Origin: a virus
Lineage: Duplodnaviria; Caudoviricetes
Direction: 5' to 3' (one strand)
DNA length: 64,000 nucleotides
Virus record (IMG/VR): IMGVR_UViG_3300036546_000248
Shown: positions 15,636 through 32,874 of the stretch, one piece after another
Position numbering within the stretch: the first letter of the stretch is position 1
Layout of the letters: every line of letters starts with the position of its first letter
The notes under the pieces: model-generated
What the model was told of the DNA's origin: nothing
Database searches by the model: none
The model's input: the letters and a program-made list of their open reading frames with translations, nothing else
Translations under genes and position numbers: made by a program

Positions 15636-15671
15636 TGTGCGTAGCCTTTTCTACTGACCACATTCATCTTG

Positions 15672-15700
15672 ATAATATATACCTGTTTTTACTTTCAATC
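15672..15700 (-). promoter_or_regulatory. Early-type promoter variant (TATATTAT plus A-rich upstream element)
   Basis: Plus strand GATAATATATACCTGTTTTT resembles the copies at 17080 and 62208. Confidence 0.5.
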
Positions 15701-15745
15701 CCAAAAAAAAAAATAAGGGACTAGGTCCCTTATTTTTTATGCTGG

Positions 15746-16102
15746 CTACTCAGCCCCGTTAACCGGCTCGTAGCGTACTGCAAGATCTTCGAAGAAAGCA
15801 TTGTCATCTTCGAGTGCTTGTAGCGAGGTCACGCGAGTCATCCGGCGCCGGACGTTAGCGGTGATCAGGAAGAAGTCCGAACGCCCAGCGCCCGAGACCT
15901 GAAAGCCTGCATCACGAATCTCGGTGATCATGCCACTGACGGTGGAGTCTTCGATGCGACTACGGCCGGTAATGGCCGTCAGTTCACCACGCGTGAATTG
16001 AACTTCAACATCATCCAGGCAACCGAACTTCAGGTTCAGTTCCAGACGGTTTTGCAGCAGGGTGATGATGTGTTTGCCCAGATCTTTATTACTCAGTTTC
16101 AT
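15746..16102 (-). CDS. Hypothetical early protein
   Basis: 118-aa ORF in the early cassette. Confidence 0.65.
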   Translation of the reverse strand: MKLSNKDLGKHIITLLQNRLELNLKFGCLDDVEVQFTRGELTAITGRSRIEDSTVSGMITEIRDAGFQVSGAGRSDFFLITANVRRRMTRVTSLQALEDDNAFFEDLAVRYEPVNGAE

Positions 16103-16735: not shown

Positions 16736-17020
16736 TTACCGGTACACGTGACAGAGTTCTTGAAACAACTCTTCACTAATACCGAACTCCGCGTTCAGAA
16801 AGATCAACCCTTGGTAGGATTGAACTCGTCCGAACAACACCCCTGCATCGTAACCCAACGACTTGCGGGATTTGAGTCGATCCACTTCCTTGTAGGTCTC
16901 CTCAGGAGTAATGGGCTTATTCGCCGCACTCCAGCCTCGGAAGAACTCCCCGTGTTTCATGGCCAACGATTCGTTGGGACACAGGCTACGGTTGAAGTGG
17001 GTATTGTAAACTGGTACCAT
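16736..17020 (-). CDS. Hypothetical early protein
   Basis: AAGGAG RBS; first gene after the TATATTAC promoter. Confidence 0.6.
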   Translation of the reverse strand: MVPVYNTHFNRSLCPNESLAMKHGEFFRGWSAANKPITPEETYKEVDRLKSRKSLGYDAGVLFGRVQSYQGLIFLNAEFGISEELFQELCHVYR

Positions 17021-17079
17021 AATAGATTCTCCTTAGAATCTTGGGGATGAATACAGTTATTTGTATTCTATTCCCTTGA

Positions 17080-17106
17080 GTAATATAGATCTGAAATTTT
17101 TTTAAC
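17080..17106 (-). promoter_or_regulatory. phiKZ-type early (virion RNAP) promoter TATATTAC with upstream A-tract
   Basis: Minus strand AAAAAAATTTCAGATCTATATTACTCAAG; exact match to the phiKZ early consensus; near-identical copy at 62208. Confidence 0.75.
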
Positions 17107-17239
17107 TAGAAAATAGACGGCATAAAAAGAAAGGAGCCCTCGGGAGGCCGAAGCCCCCCGAGGATTCCAGTGTCCCCACTTAAGGACCCGACTTCAACAA
17201 CCCGAAGATTGTTAAAGCTTTTCAGCCAGCTGCAATAAC

Positions 17240-19429
17240 TTACGGAGTTACGGCAACGACGGTCTGACGGTTCTTCAGTACCTTGTCCAGGTTCTTGACC
17301 TTGATGCGAGCAGCGACCGGAACGTTGTTCACGTGCAGGTTACGCGGCTGAACCATGGCCTCTGGGTAGGTACCGCCATCACGAGCAACCATCATGCTGG
17401 AAGCCAGTTCCGGAATCCACGCGTGAACGCCCCACTGCAGCGGGTCACCGGCTTCACACTGGCCGTCACGGGTCAGAGCGATGACGATGGTGTCGTCCAT
17501 ACGGGAGTCGAAGGTCGACTCGATCTGGTAGCTGGCGAACGCGATACCGAAGGTACGGCTGTCGCCGGTAACCATCAGGTGACGCTGCAGCAGTACGTCG
17601 GTACCGATCAGCAGCTTCGGCTGGTTGGAACCGTTGCTCGAGGCATTCAGCGCAGGCTGGAAGCCGGAAGCGCGGTACATGCGGTAGGACACGTCACGAA
17701 TGGCGTTGACCAGCAGAGCGTTGACGTCGGCCGCGCGGTCGATATCACGGATCGAGCTGATCTCTTGTTCCATGTCGATTTCGATGTCTTCGAAGAACGG
17801 GCTGACCAGGAAGCCACCCACACCTTCCACCGACGGCAGGCAACCTTTACGCTGAACGCCACCAACGTACTCTTTCAGAGTGCTGATGTAGTTGAGCAGG
17901 CGGGTCACGGCGTTGTTGGTGTTACGAACGCGAACGGCGTCGATCAGGCTTTCCAGGTCACGCGCATCGCGGTTGGAACCGGCCGGGCTCGGAGCAGAGA
18001 TCGGCGCACCCAGCGGGATGGTGTAACGGAAGACTTGATCGTTGTGGTCGAGCAGCAGACCACGGGTACGACGGTTGCTGTTGGTACGGGCAGCTTTCAG
18101 CTCGTAGCCGAGAACCTGCGAAGAAGCAGTCAGGGCTTGAGCGATGGTGCGGCCAGCGCCGGAGGCCAGGCTGATTTCGTTACCGTCTTCGTCGACGATC
18201 GAAGCCACGTTCACCTTGGAGGCGAACAGTTCAGCGTTACCCAGCTGCACGTTGACGGTACCGGTCACGTTGACCGACAGACGAACGGTGTAGTTGGCAT
18301 CACGAACAGCTTGCAGAACAGCCGGAGCAACGCCAGCAACGTCGGTGGTGTTCTTGTCCAGGACCAGGTCCTGAGTACGGAACGCCAGCGCCATTTCACG
18401 GCCGTCGCCTTCAACCGACTTCACGAAACCGGCACGAGCCAGACGCAGAGTGTTGAAACGAACGATGGTCGGAGCTACGTTGTTGGAAGCGTCGCCTTCG
18501 TCGAGTTGCACGTACAGCTTCTCGAGGCTGATGGCAGCGTCGATGGCATCGGTGTGATCGATGAAACCAGCGCCCAGCAGGCCCGGATGGCTGGACAGAC
18601 CCAGCAGGTCAACCTGCTGACCGATCAGCAGAGGAGCGGTAACGACGTCGACATTGCCGATACGGCGAGTGGTCGGTGCGACCAGAGCTTCCGGAACGAA
18701 CTTGTCGGCGTTGCTGCCGTTGGTCAGAACAGTCGGGATCAGCGCGGTGCTTTCGTCGGCCAGGATGGTGGCGTCGATAGCGGCGTGAACCAGGTTCTTA
18801 CGCTGCCAGTCGCTGCGGTTACCGCTGGACTGGTGCTGGATGGCGTTGTGCACGAGGGTGCGGCGCAGGTGGACTTCGTAGCCGCCCTGGTCGGGGCTGA
18901 CGACGGTAGTCGGGTAGAACATTTCGGAGAAGCTGTCCTGACGGGACGCTTTCACGTTGAAGGCGATCGAGTACGGGATGAACTTGGCCAGTTCACGCTC
19001 GTCGAACGCTTCGAGGGACGGAGTTTCGCGGACGTCGACCGAACCGGCGGCACCGGAGGTAGCAACTTCCAGACGCTCACCACCTTCAGCAGGAGCGGAG
19101 CGCAGAGCGATGTCGGCGTACTCGGCAGGTGCGCCAGCGGCCATGGCAGCGATGGCACCAGCTTCCAGTTGCGCGTCGGTCAGCTCTTCGCCAGCTTCGT
19201 CGCCTTCCATGGAAACCGACAGAGCGTTCTTGATTTCGCCTTTCAGCATGTCGGCAGTGCGGGTCAGTTCGCCCAGGGAGGCCGCGTCCAGCGATTCCAT
19301 GCTGATCACTTGTTGGGTGATCTGACGGGAGCTGAGGTCGGTACCTTGCGAGTCGATGGTGCTGCGCAGAGCGCCTACAGCAGTGGCCAGAGCGGAACCC
19401 TGTCCGGATTTCGAATTGATACGAGACAT
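17240..19429 (-). CDS. Major capsid protein (phiKZ gp120-like)
   Basis: 729 aa; propeptide with ISME/VSME/PSLE protease sites; strong codon bias; RQDSFSEMFYPT and ARTNSNRRTRG motifs; adjacent to DnaB as in phiKZ. Confidence 0.85.
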   Translation of the reverse strand: MSRINSKSGQGSALATAVGALRSTIDSQGTDLSSRQITQQVISMESLDAASLGELTRTADMLKGEIKNALSVSMEGDEAGEELTDAQLEAGAIAAMAAGAPAEYADIALRSAPAEGGERLEVATSGAAGSVDVRETPSLEAFDERELAKFIPYSIAFNVKASRQDSFSEMFYPTTVVSPDQGGYEVHLRRTLVHNAIQHQSSGNRSDWQRKNLVHAAIDATILADESTALIPTVLTNGSNADKFVPEALVAPTTRRIGNVDVVTAPLLIGQQVDLLGLSSHPGLLGAGFIDHTDAIDAAISLEKLYVQLDEGDASNNVAPTIVRFNTLRLARAGFVKSVEGDGREMALAFRTQDLVLDKNTTDVAGVAPAVLQAVRDANYTVRLSVNVTGTVNVQLGNAELFASKVNVASIVDEDGNEISLASGAGRTIAQALTASSQVLGYELKAARTNSNRRTRGLLLDHNDQVFRYTIPLGAPISAPSPAGSNRDARDLESLIDAVRVRNTNNAVTRLLNYISTLKEYVGGVQRKGCLPSVEGVGGFLVSPFFEDIEIDMEQEISSIRDIDRAADVNALLVNAIRDVSYRMYRASGFQPALNASSNGSNQPKLLIGTDVLLQRHLMVTGDSRTFGIAFASYQIESTFDSRMDDTIVIALTRDGQCEAGDPLQWGVHAWIPELASSMMVARDGGTYPEAMVQPRNLHVNNVPVAARIKVKNLDKVLKNRQTVVAVTP

Positions 19430-19483
19430 GTGTTGAGTCCTTACCTTATTTCAGATACAGTGGGGAGTACGGCAGAAGTCGCC

Positions 19484-19487
19484 TCAT
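19484..19487 (-). promoter_or_regulatory. Probable late promoter (TATG) of the capsid gene
   Basis: TATG about 55 nt upstream of the MCP start; the phiKZ late consensus is TATG; the motif is short, so evidence is weak. Confidence 0.4.
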
Positions 19488-19601
19488 AGTGTAGGTACAT
19501 CTACAGGAAACAATTTAATCTGCTATACCATTTGCAAAAAATCCACTTCCTTGCAGAAAGCAGAAACTTGTTGGCTTGGCGTTAAACTCCATAGAATAGA
19601 G

Positions 19602-20159
19602 TTAGGCGACCAATCCTTTCAAATAGTTGATAAACACCGGCTTGTCAGCCAACTCTGGCAACTTATGCTTCAGCAGGTGTTGACCAAACAACCGCTCCTT
19701 AAACAGGCGCTCGGCTTGTCGCACTACTTCGTTGGGCGTACCCACCTCGTGCTGACCCAGCGTGACGACGATGTACTCGTCATCCAGCACAGTGCAGCTA
19801 TAACATAGTGGCGCACCCTCCACGAAATTGCGGCCGATCAGATGCTCCAACGGATTGAACTGTTGGGTCTGAGCAGGGTTGTTAACCTCAGTGGCAGGAT
19901 TGAGCTTCATTTCCAGATAGCTCATATACGAACTGACTCGTGCATCCTGAAGGGCCAGAGCCTGTTCAGTGATCTCGTAACAGCCCGTATAGACGGCACC
20001 AGAGACGTGTAGCGGCCACGCATTAACCATGGCGTAAACCGATACATCTTCAGCTGATGTTATAGACAGAACTTTTTTAACGTCGGTGACAGCAGACAAC
20101 GGAAGCCCATGGGCTGCCAGGGTTTGCTCCAGCCACCGAGGAACAATGATCAACTTCAT
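19602..20159 (-). CDS. Conserved hypothetical protein between capsid and helicase
   Basis: 185-aa ORF with GGAG RBS. Confidence 0.65.
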   Translation of the reverse strand: MKLIIVPRWLEQTLAAHGLPLSAVTDVKKVLSITSAEDVSVYAMVNAWPLHVSGAVYTGCYEITEQALALQDARVSSYMSYLEMKLNPATEVNNPAQTQQFNPLEHLIGRNFVEGAPLCYSCTVLDDEYIVVTLGQHEVGTPNEVVRQAERLFKERLFGQHLLKHKLPELADKPVFINYLKGLVA

Positions 20160-20180
20160 GTTTTACTCCTAGGAAAGACA

Positions 20181-21713
20181 ATGGACTTCAATATTTTGCT
20201 GGTTCAGGTGATTACCCTTTTGTATCGGGAAAGTCAGCTGGACAACCGGACGAGTAACTCTGCCGAATTGGCGAATACCGTCGTAGGTACCATCAAGCTT
20301 CCTGACACCACCGTAGAGATGGATCGTAGTCGCGATACCTTGGTCTCTCTGCGCAGCACAGCCTTGTGGATGATCGGCAACCCGCCGACACAGGACTACG
20401 ATCGCGGAATGCTGCTTCAAAGGATACGTGTAAACGTTGGTGATGACGAGTATCTCTACCAAGCTGTGGAGATGGCCACACAAGACCTTCCTGACATCGG
20501 TGCTGTTAAGAAGGCAGTGCTCGAATACCGTGCTTCGCTGAACTCGTATGTCAACCTGGCAGCGGTTGAGGAAATCCTCAAGAACAACTACCACAAGCTT
20601 GCTTTTCATCGCGGTGCCATTGGACGAGACTTCGTAGGCGAGATTGTCACGGCCCTCGAACCTTACCAAGCCGGTACAGGTGCTATTGCTAACCCTGCCA
20701 TCGTTGGTGAAGCCGACCTTGATGACATGGAGAAGGTACTGGCTCTGTTGGAACAGTCGCGTGATGAACTGTCCAACGAAGGTATCCTCAAAACCGGTTG
20801 GCAAGCGATCAACCGGATGTTTGGTGATCAGGACGGTGCACGGCGCGGTGAGCAGATTCTGGTAGGTGCACTCCAGCACAACTACAAAACAGGTTTTACC
20901 CTGAACCTGTTTAAGCACTTCTGTATCTACAATAAACCGTACATGCGTGACCCTTCCAAGAAACCGATGGGTGTGCACATCTCGGCTGAGAACAACCTCA
21001 ACGACAACATCATGCAGCTCTACGTCTCGCTTCGTGAGAACGAAACCAAAGAGCCGGTGGTGTTGCGTGAGGTGGATATCGACTATGCCTCCAAGTACGT
21101 TAAGGAAAAGCTCCAGGAGACGGGTTACTCCATCCGGATGCTTCGGGTAGACCCCAGCCTTTTCACGTACCGGGACTACATGGACTTGATCACTCGCTAC
21201 GAGTCCGAAGGCTACGAAATCCACTTCTGTGTGTTCGACTACCTGAACATGATCAACAAGAAGGGTTGTCAGCAAGGCCCGCACGGTTTTGAAACACGTG
21301 ATCTGTTCCGGAGGATGCGTAACTTCAATACCCCACGAGGCATCACCTATATCACACCACACCAGTTGTCGACTCAAGCCAAAGAACTCGTACGTTCCAA
21401 CATCGAGAACTTTGTCCAAGAGATTGCCAACAAAGGTTACTACGACTCCTGCCGGACGATCGACCAAGAAGTGGATATGGAGATTGCGATCCACATCGAG
21501 AAGATGAATGGTAAGAGCTACCTGACTGTACAGCGAGGTAAGCACAGAAAGTTGGGGGTGACTAAGAACGAACACCTTTACACTGTACTTAAGTTTGAAC
21601 CTGTAGGGGGAGGAATACCCGACGACATTAATGGACCCGATATGTCTCTAAGAGCAGTTGGCGGAAGCGCCGTATCTTCAAGCGAACAGACTGACACTTG
21701 GTGGGCTAACTAA
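20181..21713 (+). CDS. dnaB: DnaB-like replicative helicase (phiKZ gp118-like)
   Basis: Divergent Walker A GALQHNYKTG, Walker B CVFDYLNM, ITPHQLS and QRGKHR motifs. Confidence 0.85.
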   Translation: MDFNILLVQVITLLYRESQLDNRTSNSAELANTVVGTIKLPDTTVEMDRSRDTLVSLRSTALWMIGNPPTQDYDRGMLLQRIRVNVGDDEYLYQAVEMATQDLPDIGAVKKAVLEYRASLNSYVNLAAVEEILKNNYHKLAFHRGAIGRDFVGEIVTALEPYQAGTGAIANPAIVGEADLDDMEKVLALLEQSRDELSNEGILKTGWQAINRMFGDQDGARRGEQILVGALQHNYKTGFTLNLFKHFCIYNKPYMRDPSKKPMGVHISAENNLNDNIMQLYVSLRENETKEPVVLREVDIDYASKYVKEKLQETGYSIRMLRVDPSLFTYRDYMDLITRYESEGYEIHFCVFDYLNMINKKGCQQGPHGFETRDLFRRMRNFNTPRGITYITPHQLSTQAKELVRSNIENFVQEIANKGYYDSCRTIDQEVDMEIAIHIEKMNGKSYLTVQRGKHRKLGVTKNEHLYTVLKFEPVGGGIPDDINGPDMSLRAVGGSAVSSSEQTDTWWAN

Positions 21714-21726
21714 AGTCGGCATAAAC

Positions 21727-21753
21727 GAGGTCTTCCCCTTCGGGGGAAGCCTC
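21727..21753 (+). terminator. Helicase terminator (UUCG loop)
   Basis: GAGG-CTTCCCC-TTCG-GGGAAG-CCTC followed by CCCTTTTATG. Confidence 0.7.
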
Positions 21754-21779
21754 ACCCTTTTATGACCTCTGTATTCTAG

Positions 21780-22060
21780 GCGGCATAAAAGTTATTCCGA
21801 CCACTAAGCCTACGGGTGCACTCCGCGCTTAGTGGTCGGTCTAACCCCGTCACCTAACAACACCCGCGCACAAAAGCTGGGTATAGGCTTGACGGCTGCT
21901 CACTGACTTGACGGGTCAGAAGCGTTCTCGTTCGTCCCCTGAGTGTCAATTCAGGGCACACGTTAAGCGCTCTTAGGCGCTGAAAGGGCTTTCGTAACCC
22001 TCACCACCTGCACGATGAGTCAGTGATGGAGCGTATCTTTAACACTCATTAAAAACCCCA
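21780..22060 (-). ncRNA. Candidate structured non-coding RNA A (about 280 nt)
   Basis: No ORF; 13-bp perfect IR 21797-21809/21827-21839; 9-bp long-range stem 21900-21908/22018-22026 enclosing three hairpins; AAAAATTAC middle-promoter-like motif upstream; TTTTATGCCG downstream. Confidence 0.45.
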
Positions 22061-22101
22061 CAAAAGTAATTTTTTACAGAATTGGGTAAAAGTATACTTT
22101 T

Positions 22102-22680
22102 TTTGACCATTAGTTTGAGAGTAATGTACTCTCTTCACTTAAGGTACCCCCAGTACCATAACCTAATCAAGCTTCGTGCTTGCGTATCGGACTAACCACT
22201 GTGAATAATCACAACGTCCTGAACGGGTGTGACTGTCGCCAGCAGTCACCAAAGACCCCGTTTGAAACTGGTTTAGCTCGTAACACCGTAACACCCTTCA
22301 CTGTCGCTGATCGTCAGCAAACCTCTCACGAGGGTTTTCTCAGTGTCGCGTTGTTCCTCTTGATCGGCGATCTTTCTAATAGAACCGTTCAGTGTGGGAA
22401 AACTGCAATTCATCGCGGTTTGGTAACTTTGTTGTTTAAGACAAAGCCTCTCTTTAAAGTTCTCTCCAACCAGAACTTTAGTCGGGTTTTTAAAAGTGTT
22501 CAGTTGGGCGTTGGCCGCAAGTCGCGTGTACTCTCTACACCTATTGTCGCAGCGTTCTACGCAGGTTCTTATTGTGAATACCTCACAACGAGTACCAACC
22601 GGTAACGATAGCGCCCCTGCCACAGGGCCACCCTTAGGAGGACTCCCGTGTAGGGAGCCTCCAAGGGATCGTTATGCCGC
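22102..22680 (+). ncRNA. Candidate large structured non-coding RNA B (about 570 nt)
   Basis: More than 10 hairpins and nested stems; only unconvincing ORFs; ends in a 15-bp interrupted stem 22631-22667 followed by TTATGCCG. Confidence 0.45.
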
Positions 22681-23067
22681 TTATTTTCCAAAGCCTTTTA
22701 TGCCGGCAGAGCTAAAGAGCCGTTTGGTACTGTAGTAACCAAAAGCTCGACCACTGTACCCGTGGCTTTTTGGCAGTGAGACTTCCACCACCATCAGTCC
22801 TTGATCGTCAAAACGACGTTCAAGCATCTCCCCTAAGCTGACAATGAAGTCGACTTCGCGGTGTTTGAGTTCAGAGAACAGGCTGTCACTGACATACAAG
22901 CAAAAGCGTTGGCGGTAGTATTGACTGTCATTCTTCACCCGGTAGGTGACATAACCACTACAGCTCTTCTCAATGTCATCCTCAATATCAGCGATGGGCA
23001 TGAAAATCGTGTTAGGTAATACTTGAATAACATCGCCGTTCTCCACCATAGCGTCCAATGTAATCAT
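22681..23067 (-). CDS. Hypothetical protein
   Basis: 128-aa ORF with GAGGT RBS. Confidence 0.6.
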   Translation of the reverse strand: MITLDAMVENGDVIQVLPNTIFMPIADIEDDIEKSCSGYVTYRVKNDSQYYRQRFCLYVSDSLFSELKHREVDFIVSLGEMLERRFDDQGLMVVEVSLPKSHGYSGRAFGYYSTKRLFSSAGIKGFGK

Positions 23068-23102: not shown

Positions 23103-23624
23103 CTAAAGGACAGTCTTAAGGACAAACCCATCGAAGAAGTTTTTAAGCACGATTGGATCAGTTTGAAGGTGTACTTTAGCAGCGCTAGGTTTAGTGAATC
23201 TTCCGCCGGTGAAGGTCCGGTGTAGATCCACGCCACCTCGAATTAATGTGAGTTTCCACTTAGCCACTTTTAGTACTTGTAAAGCTTCGTAGAAAATGGA
23301 GTCGACTCGTGCCCGGCTGATCACCTTCGGTCCGGTCGGAGTCATGAGTTCTGGTTTCTCACACAGTTTGTCGTGTAAGGCTACCGCTTGGTCGTATTCA
23401 CCGTGACGCGGTAAGAGTGACCAGACAATGCGTGGGATATCGGCTCCATTGGTCAGAAAACCCAATTCGACGTCAACCCATTCGTCACTGCCCTTAGTAC
23501 CCACATAATACCGGAATGGTACACACACCCGCCAGAAATCTCCGGCCAGTATGAAACTTGCATTCTCGTCATAGGCAAACGCCGTGCGGTTACTCAGATT
23601 GGTGAATCCAACAAAAGTATCCAT
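23103..23624 (-). CDS. DUF1353-family protein
   Basis: GFLTNGADIPR...AVALHDKL matches the family pattern GFxTDxASIPR...HDxLY; AAGGAAG RBS. Confidence 0.7.
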   Translation of the reverse strand: MDTFVGFTNLSNRTAFAYDENASFILAGDFWRVCVPFRYYVGTKGSDEWVDVELGFLTNGADIPRIVWSLLPRHGEYDQAVALHDKLCEKPELMTPTGPKVISRARVDSIFYEALQVLKVAKWKLTLIRGGVDLHRTFTGGRFTKPSAAKVHLQTDPIVLKNFFDGFVLKTVL

Positions 23625-23725
23625 AAGCTTCCTTGTGAAGGCTAACGAAAAAAAAAAAGGACGAGGCCCTCTCATAAAATAGGCGGCATAGACGGGGCCG
23701 TAGCCCCGTCTAAACCAAGTAGCAA

Positions 23726-23863
23726 CTATTTCGCCAAGAGGTACAACCAATACCCAAGGTTCGCTAGCAGGAATGCGCAGTTACCCACCAGAAAGTTCCG
23801 GTCGGCTAGAAAGGCCCTACGACGCTCCTGTTGCAGCACCAGCGCTCTGTCGAACACTACCAT
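23726..23863 (-). CDS. Small (45 aa) hydrophobic protein missed by the ORF track
   Basis: AAGGAG RBS plus ATG: MVVFDRALVLQQERRRAFLADRNFLVGNCAFLLANLGYWLYLLAK. Confidence 0.6.
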   Translation of the reverse strand: MVVFDRALVLQQERRRAFLADRNFLVGNCAFLLANLGYWLYLLAK

Positions 23864-32785: not shown

Positions 32786-32874
32786 CCACTTGGCCTCTAA
32801 GGGACTTCGGTCCCTTAGAGTGCTCTTTATGCCGGCATAAAACCCATGAGGCCCGAAGGCCTCATGGGTTCGCC

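Follow-up and report, generated by a model that had tools for sequence, protein, structure and literature searches.

The DNA analysed here, referred to as the window, is a stretch of 64,000 nucleotides (nt) from a tailed phage of the class Caudoviricetes (IMG/VR record IMGVR_UViG_3300036546_000248), and the element under study is its region 22102-22680, which a first-pass annotation of the letters alone had proposed to be a large, highly structured non-coding RNA of the plus strand. We found that the element is an undescribed, real RNA with a narrow range, whose architecture is so far an array of hairpins. The hairpins are present, they are conserved in relatives and their fold is under selection; since selection acts mostly on the fold, the element is a real structured RNA. 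In addition, an open reading frame (ORF) of 134 codons within it has been kept open, and therefore ribosomes probably read it. The reading we prefer is a clade-specific structured RNA that is translated or bifunctional, to which we assign a probability of about 0.5.

All of the hairpins checked from the first-pass list are present in the window (22117-22133; 22143-22157; 22168-22182; 22229-22249 nested in 22222-22262; 22427-22446; 22455-22480), including GTGTA/TACAC at 22526-22540, TTGTGA/TCACAA at 22573-22589 and the terminal stem at 22631-22667. When the whole 579 nt were folded and compared with 100 dinucleotide shuffles, the plus strand had a z-score of -4.07 and none of the 100 shuffles was as good, while the minus strand of the same 579 nt had a weaker z-score of -2.69. 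In 240-nt segments, the interior had z-scores of only -1.7 to -2.0, where the background across the window was -0.9 +/- 1.6, and sliding z-scores were too noisy to single out the locus. Because the interior z-scores sit near the background, stability alone is weak evidence.

Relatives were reached through the helicase protein encoded upstream, the 128-amino-acid (aa) protein encoded downstream and the ORF product in IMG/VR, ENA and Logan assemblies. The gene order is identical in all of them, and they fall into seven lineages of one clade of phiKZ-like jumbo phages, of the nucleus-forming type, with 65-97% nt identity. By nt identity over the intergenic gap that contains the element, the lineages are the group of the window (92-97%), L004, L005/L020 and L019 (75-80%), and L025/L026, L027 and L028 (65-70%). 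Conservation and covariation in relatives, which had been named beforehand as a test, were both found: about 12 of the listed hairpins are conserved across the seven lineages, with compensatory changes in the local hairpins. A consensus fold of ten sequences has 144 pairs, of which 96.9% are canonical, and 35 pairs change on both sides, compared with 4-10 when the partners are slid. This fold was derived from the same sequences, and therefore we ran held-out tests, in which the structure was trained on some lineages and tested on others with slid partners as the control. When L027 and L028 were kept out of the training, 22 of the 24 doubly novel pairs in these two lineages were canonical; when L004, L005, L019 and L025 were kept out, the count was 16 of 20. 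Over both splits, 38 of 44 doubly changed pairs still pair, compared with about 47% in the slid controls. Of the double changes in local hairpins predicted from the window alone, 36 of 49 were retained. Across the seven lineages, 98% of the cells in the core (22422-22600) are paired, and seven pairs change on both sides, compared with 2.9 +/- 1.2 in shuffles (0 of 500 shuffles as high). Column variability tracks pairing at every codon position, with 13-28% of the paired columns and 51-56% of the unpaired columns varying. By compensatory change in independent lineages, the element is thus a structured RNA gene, for its local hairpins only.

Helices that would join these hairpins into junctions did not hold in the same way. 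The first-pass annotation had taken a CACTG/CAGTG helix to close a three-way junction, which is not supported; the helices predicted there from the window alone keep only 10-41% of the changed cells. A candidate closing helix (22416-22433/22587-22601), with which a four-way junction would arise, was predicted only from training sets that included L027 and L028. A 19-nt inverted repeat (22049-22067/22475-22493) was treated as chance; it is not kept in relatives.

On the plus strand, the RNA begins with a 5' leader of three small hairpins (22117-22182; hairpins at 22117-22133, 22143-22157 and 22168-22182), whose linkers ACUUAAGG and CCAUAAYCUAAUC are near-invariant. Compensatory changes turn GGTAC/GTACC into GGTG/CACC and GGCAT/ATGCC, and CAAGC/GCTTG into CGAGC/GCTCG, and every doubly novel pair of the leader was canonical in the held-out test. 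The leader is followed by a GGAC/GUCC stem (22189-22219), which becomes GGAU/AUCC in L027 and whose loop carries the GUG start codon of the ORF in a mini-hairpin, UGUG(A)/(U)CACA. An extended hairpin at 22220-22264, with an outer stem (22220-22227/22257-22264) and an inner stem (22229-22236/22242-22249), has GC to AU and UA to CG double changes, and 4/4 and 2/2 doubly novel pairs were kept in held-out lineages. Two short hairpins, GCUGA/UCAGC (22306-22318) and CCUC/GAGG (22322-22333), also carry compensatory changes (2/2 and 3/3 kept). The long hairpin at 22443-22490 consists of an outer stem (22443-22449/22484-22490) and a perfect 10-base-pair (bp) stem (22454-22463/22472-22481) closed by the invariant loop CUCCAACC (22464-22471); 70 of 70 cells are canonical in the seven lineages, with AU to GC and CG to UA double changes and 4/4 kept when held out. 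The next hairpin (22506-22557; 22506-22520/22544-22557) is rich in G-U pairs and is capped by an invariant GCGUGUA/UACACC stem (22524-22541). Four to five of its G-U pairs swap with A-U or G-C between lineages, where the minus strand would have C-A mismatches, and 12 of 14 novel cells were kept in the held-out test. Finally, the 3' domain (22600-22679) contains an invariant helix, GGUAACGAU/AUCGUUAUGCC, around a hairpin at 22613-22628 and the 15-bp terminator stem at 22631-22667. The invariant helix includes both the stop codon of the ORF and the TTAT of the terminator, and the terminator stem covaries, with CCCTTAGGAGG changing to CTCAATGGAGG and the 3' arm changing to match.

The fold of the alignment has an energy of -132 kcal/mol on the plus strand versus -103 kcal/mol on the minus strand, and on the plus strand 47 pairs change between Watson-Crick (WC) and G-U, compared with 11 between WC and A-C. 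This G-U asymmetry favours the plus strand as the strand of the putative RNA. Intrinsic terminators of phiKZ have a consensus of a G+C-rich hairpin followed by TTATKYYGT (Putzeys et al. 2024, PMC10914365), and the element ends in such a terminator, its 15-bp stem being followed by ATCGTTATGCCGC. The first-pass annotation had remarked that TTATGCCG, which stands after the terminal stem (22672-22679), trails terminators throughout the window, and the motif is indeed recurrent, with 13 sites compared with 1.2 expected. The remark was right and the motif was already known, because it matches the published phiKZ consensus. A second copy of TTTTATGCCGG lies at 22696-22706 on the plus strand, just within the 3' end of the convergent minus-strand gene, and is conserved in relatives. 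Other TTATGCCG sites are at 771, 2089, 10379, 17118, 38768, 60948 and 62251, and those at 2089, 38768 and 60948 appear to be inside ORFs. At 32827-32840, two copies of TTATGCCG overlap as a palindrome, TTATGCCGGCATAA, between convergent genes.

The gap was found wholly or partly in twenty public runs from 13 studies. Six of these runs are on record as RNA, and four RNA runs were compared with the stretch. A tick metatranscriptome had a single 507-nt contig covering only 22135-22637, and a single-organism transcriptome from a different study had a single 380-nt contig covering only 22314-22689. A wastewater RNA run had four short pieces inside the gap, and a sediment RNA run had long contigs that may be DNA or whole-phage RNA. 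Parts of the stretch left uncovered by the RNA contigs were not counted as evidence, nor was the fact that runs X16-X20 are missing from the list of runs with the capsid gene. The contigs are a hint, rather than a proof, that the RNA unit is expressed and comparatively abundant. Together, the conserved hairpins, the G-U bias, the terminator and the library contigs point to a discrete, structured plus-strand transcript of about 570 nt. Such a transcript had been proposed from the window alone, and it is now supported by the conserved hairpins, by a terminator of its own and by the G-U strand asymmetry, the contigs leaving its ends unfixed. The tick library, an oligo-dT metatranscriptome, and the single-organism transcriptome (X19 and X20) suggest that the RNA, or the phage and its host, is a frequent passenger in unrelated RNA libraries.

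The ORF is located at 22201-22605 on the plus strand, has a GTG start and a TAA stop, and makes up about 70% of the RNA. Its frame is open from 22162 to 22605 in all lineages, and the GTG at 22201 is invariant. No other frame is open in all lineages, and the minus-strand ORF at 22273-22623 is not conserved. Inside the ORF, there are six distinct indel events, of 3, 3, 6, 3, 3 and 3 nt. Upstream and downstream of it, there are about 11 events of 1, 2 or 4 nt, and none of them is a multiple of 3 (Fisher's exact test, P of about 1e-4). A 1-nt indel located 15 nt upstream of the invariant GTG marks the start of the frame constraint. Four of the seven lineages came from protein searches based on the ORF, and the unbiased frame evidence comes from L004 and L005, two divergent lineages that were found independently of it. 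L004 has a probability of 0.145, and L005 one of 0.069, of remaining free of stops, which is modest alone; combining stops and indels, the unbiased frame evidence has a P of about 1e-4. Broken or truncated versions of the ORF were not found as separate fragments among 5.8 billion protein clusters. The element thus has the conserved reading frame of a protein-coding gene, and the earlier statement that no plus-strand gene is present was wrong as it stood. Of the label "non-coding RNA", the conserved structured RNA has held up, and "non-coding" is doubtful, as a frame covering 70% of the RNA stays open with only multiple-of-3 indels. On the aligned sequences, the comparative evidence leans towards translation of 22180-22605.

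Several observations weigh against a translated or bifunctional structured RNA. At the RNA level, the libraries provide assembled contigs, which give no strand, true ends or expression level. Among long-range pairs predicted from the window alone, only 24-25% of the changed cells still pair, and in the global minimum free energy structure predicted from the window alone, 40.6% of the changed cells pair in held-out lineages, which is no better than the controls. At the level of the frame, the intact frames of four lineages are biased because these lineages were found by the ORF-based searches. The C-terminal ~10 codons of the ORF change frame in the three most distant lineages through 2-, 4- and 13-nt indels. 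In L027 and L028, the ORF (163 and 189 codons; L027:3501-3992, L028:3501-4070) continues past the terminator hairpin and into the 3' end of the convergent 128-aa gene. The nonsynonymous rate (dN) of the ORF is 0.26-0.32 and its ratio to the synonymous rate (dS), omega, is 0.67-0.76, compared with an omega of 0.05-0.16 in neighbouring genes. Changes at the three codon positions number 32/30/36, compared with 50/22/198 in the helicase gene, and G+C content by codon position is flat. For L025, L027 and L028, changes read in frame are synonymous no more often than those read out of frame. There is no Shine-Dalgarno sequence within 5-10 nt of the GUG, and neighbouring genes have strong ones; both the GUG and the only GGA are within conserved stems. 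The AlphaFold2 model of the ORF product has a predicted local distance difference test score (pLDDT) of 30.7, and the ESM recognition of the product is 1115, while known families reach 2300.

These properties bear first on a purely non-coding structured RNA, whose open frame would be a coincidence or a by-product and would never be translated. We consider this explanation unlikely, if the strongest of the alternatives. It is favoured by the lack of codon periodicity, with an omega of about 0.7 and synonymous sites constrained like the others; the ORF does not have the periodicity, with dN much below dS, of a coding gene. The dS of the ORF is 0.39-0.45, compared with 0.9-1.6 in flanking genes, and this sign of selection at the RNA level counts for a translated structured RNA as well. 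The missing Shine-Dalgarno sequence and the start codon buried in a stem also favour it, and the ORF has neither a ribosome-binding site nor an accessible start. The same is true of the pLDDT of 30.7 and the low ESM recognition, of the stop position that is not conserved in distant lineages, and of a stop avoidance that reaches only P = 0.07-0.15 per unbiased lineage. A never-translated frame, however, does not account for indels that are multiples of 3 inside the ORF only (Fisher's test, about 1e-4), nor for a frame constraint that sets in right after the 1-nt indel upstream of the GTG. In addition, no other frame is open throughout, and split ORF fragments were not found in public protein sets.

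Alternatively, the ORF might be an ordinary gene whose product is a small, basic and fast-evolving protein, for example one in host interaction or anti-defence, and the hairpins might only confer stability or regulation on its mRNA. Both the GTG start and the reading frame are conserved, and compared with L004, L005 and L019, in-frame changes are synonymous about twice as often as out-of-frame changes (14-17 versus 6-10). When measured against the neutral dS of the neighbours, the dN of 0.26-0.32 is little above that of the neighbouring DUF1353 protein (0.15-0.21). Gene callers predicted the ORF in at least 58 variants. Against these points, no single one of the 58 variants of the product in the public collection occurs on more than 5 contigs, compared with 52 contigs for one variant of the 128-aa neighbour. 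Unpaired ORF columns are equally variable at codon positions 1, 2 and 3 (0.55, 0.51 and 0.56), and the hydrophobic/polar character of the product is not kept between lineages. The C-terminus switches frame in distant lineages, and the Shine-Dalgarno sequence is missing despite strong ones in the neighbours. The product is neither foldable nor recognisable: no fold was predicted, a search of the ESM Atlas and the AlphaFold2 model gave no usable lead, there was no Pfam or PHROG match, and a hidden Markov model search of 1.84 billion representative proteins found no homologue outside the clade. An ordinary protein gene is therefore improbable too.

For a translated or bifunctional structured RNA, the following mechanism can be proposed. 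A self-contained plus-strand unit would extend from an AT-rich hub at ~22.05-22.11 kb to the phiKZ-type terminator at 22631-22679, and its product would be an RNA about 570 nt long that is apparently abundant and consists of 12 or more local hairpins. Selection would act mainly on the RNA, with stems kept and covarying and with loops and linkers drifting, and all three codon positions would evolve alike at about one third of the neutral rate. Ribosomes most likely traverse the 134-codon GUG frame, and the polypeptide sequence would be hardly constrained. What counts is probably not a folded protein; it would be either that ribosomes translate the frame at all, or a small peptide that is basic and unstructured. 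The working part may be the array of hairpins, together with those loops and linkers that are invariant, as a binding platform or a decoy for a phage or host factor, and the passage of ribosomes may modulate or protect it. The invariant CUCCAACC, ACUUAAGG and CCAUAAYCUAAUC suggest such a binding platform. Translation of the frame and any function are inferred. A more specific proposal is rather unlikely and is offered tentatively: an RNA of a nucleus-forming jumbo phage might need ribosome transit rather than an encoded protein, for instance if it were translated and, as a structured decoy or sensor, engaged host ribosomes or factors associated with them, and it might be paired with a second, divergently transcribed structured RNA, both starting from one palindromic promoter hub.

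The window comes from an IMG/VR contig of 131.5 kb, which is estimated to be about 47% of the genome. Its phiKZ-like markers are a PhiKZ-type major capsid protein (17240-19429, minus strand), a divergent DnaB-like helicase (20109-21713, plus strand) and a DUF1353 protein (23103-23750, minus strand). The RNA unit lies inside a 967-nt gap (21714-22680), which is bounded by the stop codon of the helicase gene and by the stop of the convergent 128-aa gene (22681-23067, minus strand). With the gap as the query, blastn found no match among deposited phages (50,697 records), and DNA-pattern scans of IMG/VR and JGI metagenomes returned only members of the same clade. A covariance model of the RNA core (R1) found nothing significant in five complete or near-complete genomes of more distant chimalliviruses (best E = 0.42), and no second copy of the core on its own contig; the RNA element is thus single-copy and clade-specific. 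In more distant chimalliviruses (among them Xanthomonas phages RTH11 and LucasX, and L007), a gene for a membrane protein of 115-118 aa follows the helicase gene in place of the block of two RNAs described below. This gene is conserved in the related clades (LLGLLL.KH..LAHVID.GYS...; L017:6743-7090, L018:6728-7075, L007:7617-7973), and its product is unrelated to anything in the gap. The ORF product was considered as a counterpart of the membrane protein of RTH11, LucasX and L007, and this was rejected at an hhalign probability of 0.2%.

To the left of the plus-strand RNA is an AT-rich hub (22040-22116, no strand) with a perfect 14-bp palindrome, AAAAGTATACTTTT, at 22088-22101. The hub has a G+C content of 29% and ranks in the top three 100-mers of the 131-kb contig by AT content, and blocks such as GTAATTTTTTACAGAAT are conserved in relatives. 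The hub motifs TTTTTTACAGAAT and TATACTTTT do not recur elsewhere in the 131-kb contig, and a sigma-70 scan for promoters was at chance level. On the other side of the hub is a neighbouring structured RNA of about 270 nt on the minus strand (21781-22050), which ends in a 13-bp hairpin followed by TTATGCCG (21788-21781). Its alignment folds at -79 kcal/mol on the minus strand versus -58 kcal/mol on the plus strand, with 27 compensatory pairs and 20 WC to G-U changes compared with 4 WC to A-C changes. A hairpin at 21937-21956 has about five different covarying stems and a conserved GUCA loop, and the helix enclosing the invariant loop ACUCAUCGUG covaries as well. The minus-strand RNA is outside the RNA studied here, yet it forms one unit with it. 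The hub between the two RNAs is presumed to be their divergent promoter region, and the promoter and the 5' end of the plus-strand RNA are inferred. Read in either direction, the palindrome AAAAGTATACTTTT has an A-rich run followed by TACT, which resembles the description of the phiKZ middle promoter; the motif occurs only once in the 131 kb. The other most AT-rich spots, at 17002-17130 and 15642-15750, lie downstream of the capsid gene and could also be promoter hubs.

The arrangement around the hub might also be a cis-acting replication origin, in which the AT-rich palindromic hub is the unwinding element and the flanking structured transcripts are primer or activator RNAs. Origin transcripts of this kind are the R-loop RNAs of T4 oriF and oriG, and ColE1 RNA II, a structured RNA for which the fold matters, is about 550 nt long. 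Similar to these, the locus has a presumed promoter adjoining an AT-rich element beside replication genes: the unit is directly downstream of the replicative helicase gene, and the hub, one of the three most AT-rich spots of the 131 kb with its perfect 14-bp palindrome, is flanked by two divergent structured RNAs. However, there is no extremum of cumulative GC skew at the hub, and iterons or repeated boxes were not found. The G-U asymmetry reflects selection on RNA folds 100-500 nt from the hub, and an origin leaves the conserved frame unexplained. A conserved ORF and a strong 3' terminator are atypical of primer RNAs, and related clades have the small membrane-protein gene at the same position. 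An origin is therefore very improbable. A degenerate group I intron or other ribozyme, as the first-pass annotation had suggested from a GACUA...UAGUC pair that can be drawn and is pairable in relatives, can practically be dismissed: a cmscan of 21500-23000 on both strands at E<=10 gave only a microRNA-like hairpin and a long non-coding RNA fragment and no match to Intron_gpI (RF00028), no P3-P8 core was found, the element interrupts no gene and sits between the stop codons of two convergent genes, the long-range helices fail the held-out tests, the junction helix fails too, and GACUA overlaps the covarying local stem GGAC/GUCC.

The proposal that the RNA belongs to no recognised family was confirmed by Rfam cmscan, which had no match among 4227 families at gathering thresholds in the whole window, and ARAGORN found no transfer RNA or transfer-messenger RNA. 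By contrast, the description as an ornate, ROOL/GOLLD-like RNA did not hold, since only local hairpins pass the held-out tests, with no multi-junction or long-range helix, and the RNA is from a single narrow phage clade. The RNA resembles ROOL (RF03087) and GOLLD (RF01998) in its size class of 0.5-0.8 kb, its association with phages, its many conserved helices and the lack of a known function. It differs from them in that it matches neither covariance model, has no validated multi-way junctions or pseudoknots, contains a conserved ORF and is limited to one narrow clade. Some bacterial RNAs have dual functions, such as Staphylococcus aureus RNAIII/hld, SgrS/SgrT and SR1/SR1P, whose frames are 26-43 codons long. 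The RNA of the window shares with them a string of hairpins of about 0.5 kb that contains a reading frame, and visible selection on RNA structure. Unlike them, it is a phage RNA, its frame has 134 codons and takes up 70% of the RNA, and it has no amino-acid constraint, no Shine-Dalgarno sequence and no known base-pairing target. Dual-function RNAs such as RNAIII are thus the nearest by working principle, and ROOL and GOLLD are the nearest by size and phage association.

In phiKZ and 201phi2-1, the small and non-coding RNAs identified by ONT-cappable-seq are shorter than 250 nt and mostly derived from 5' untranslated regions, e.g., upstream of gp182 (PMC10914365, PMC11512511). They are from the same phage family as the RNA described here, and they share with it the terminator grammar of a hairpin followed by TTATKYYGT and the form of short independent units between genes. 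In contrast to them, this RNA is about 570 nt long, its locus follows the helicase gene, and the searched genomes of more distant chimalliviruses lack it; in the literature searched on the phiKZ and 201phi2-1 transcriptomes, the RNAs reported are all shorter than 250 nt and at other loci.

PhiKZ-like phages are models of the phage nucleus and candidates for therapy, and hardly any of their biology at the RNA level is known. At this locus, two divergent conserved structured RNAs replace the small membrane-protein gene of related clades, and the plus-strand RNA seems abundant enough to be assembled separately from unrelated metatranscriptomes. Its combination of features is rare: the fold is under clear selection and a frame is kept open, with no detectable selection on amino acids. 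The RNA lends itself well to the question of whether, in a structured RNA, being translated can in itself be what is selected for. The ORF has already been annotated as a hypothetical protein by gene callers in public data, and this annotation may mislead.

Two further observations were made on the neighbouring genes. The terminator of the helicase gene (21726-21770) looks bidirectional: after its hairpin, GAGGTCTTCCCC/GGGGAAGCCTC, the plus strand has CTTTTATGACC and the minus strand has GTTTATGCCG. Opposite the capsid and helicase genes are very long antisense ORFs, of 718 aa (17333-19489, plus strand) and 468 aa (20169-21575, minus strand), respectively, which are probably shadow ORFs of the real genes.

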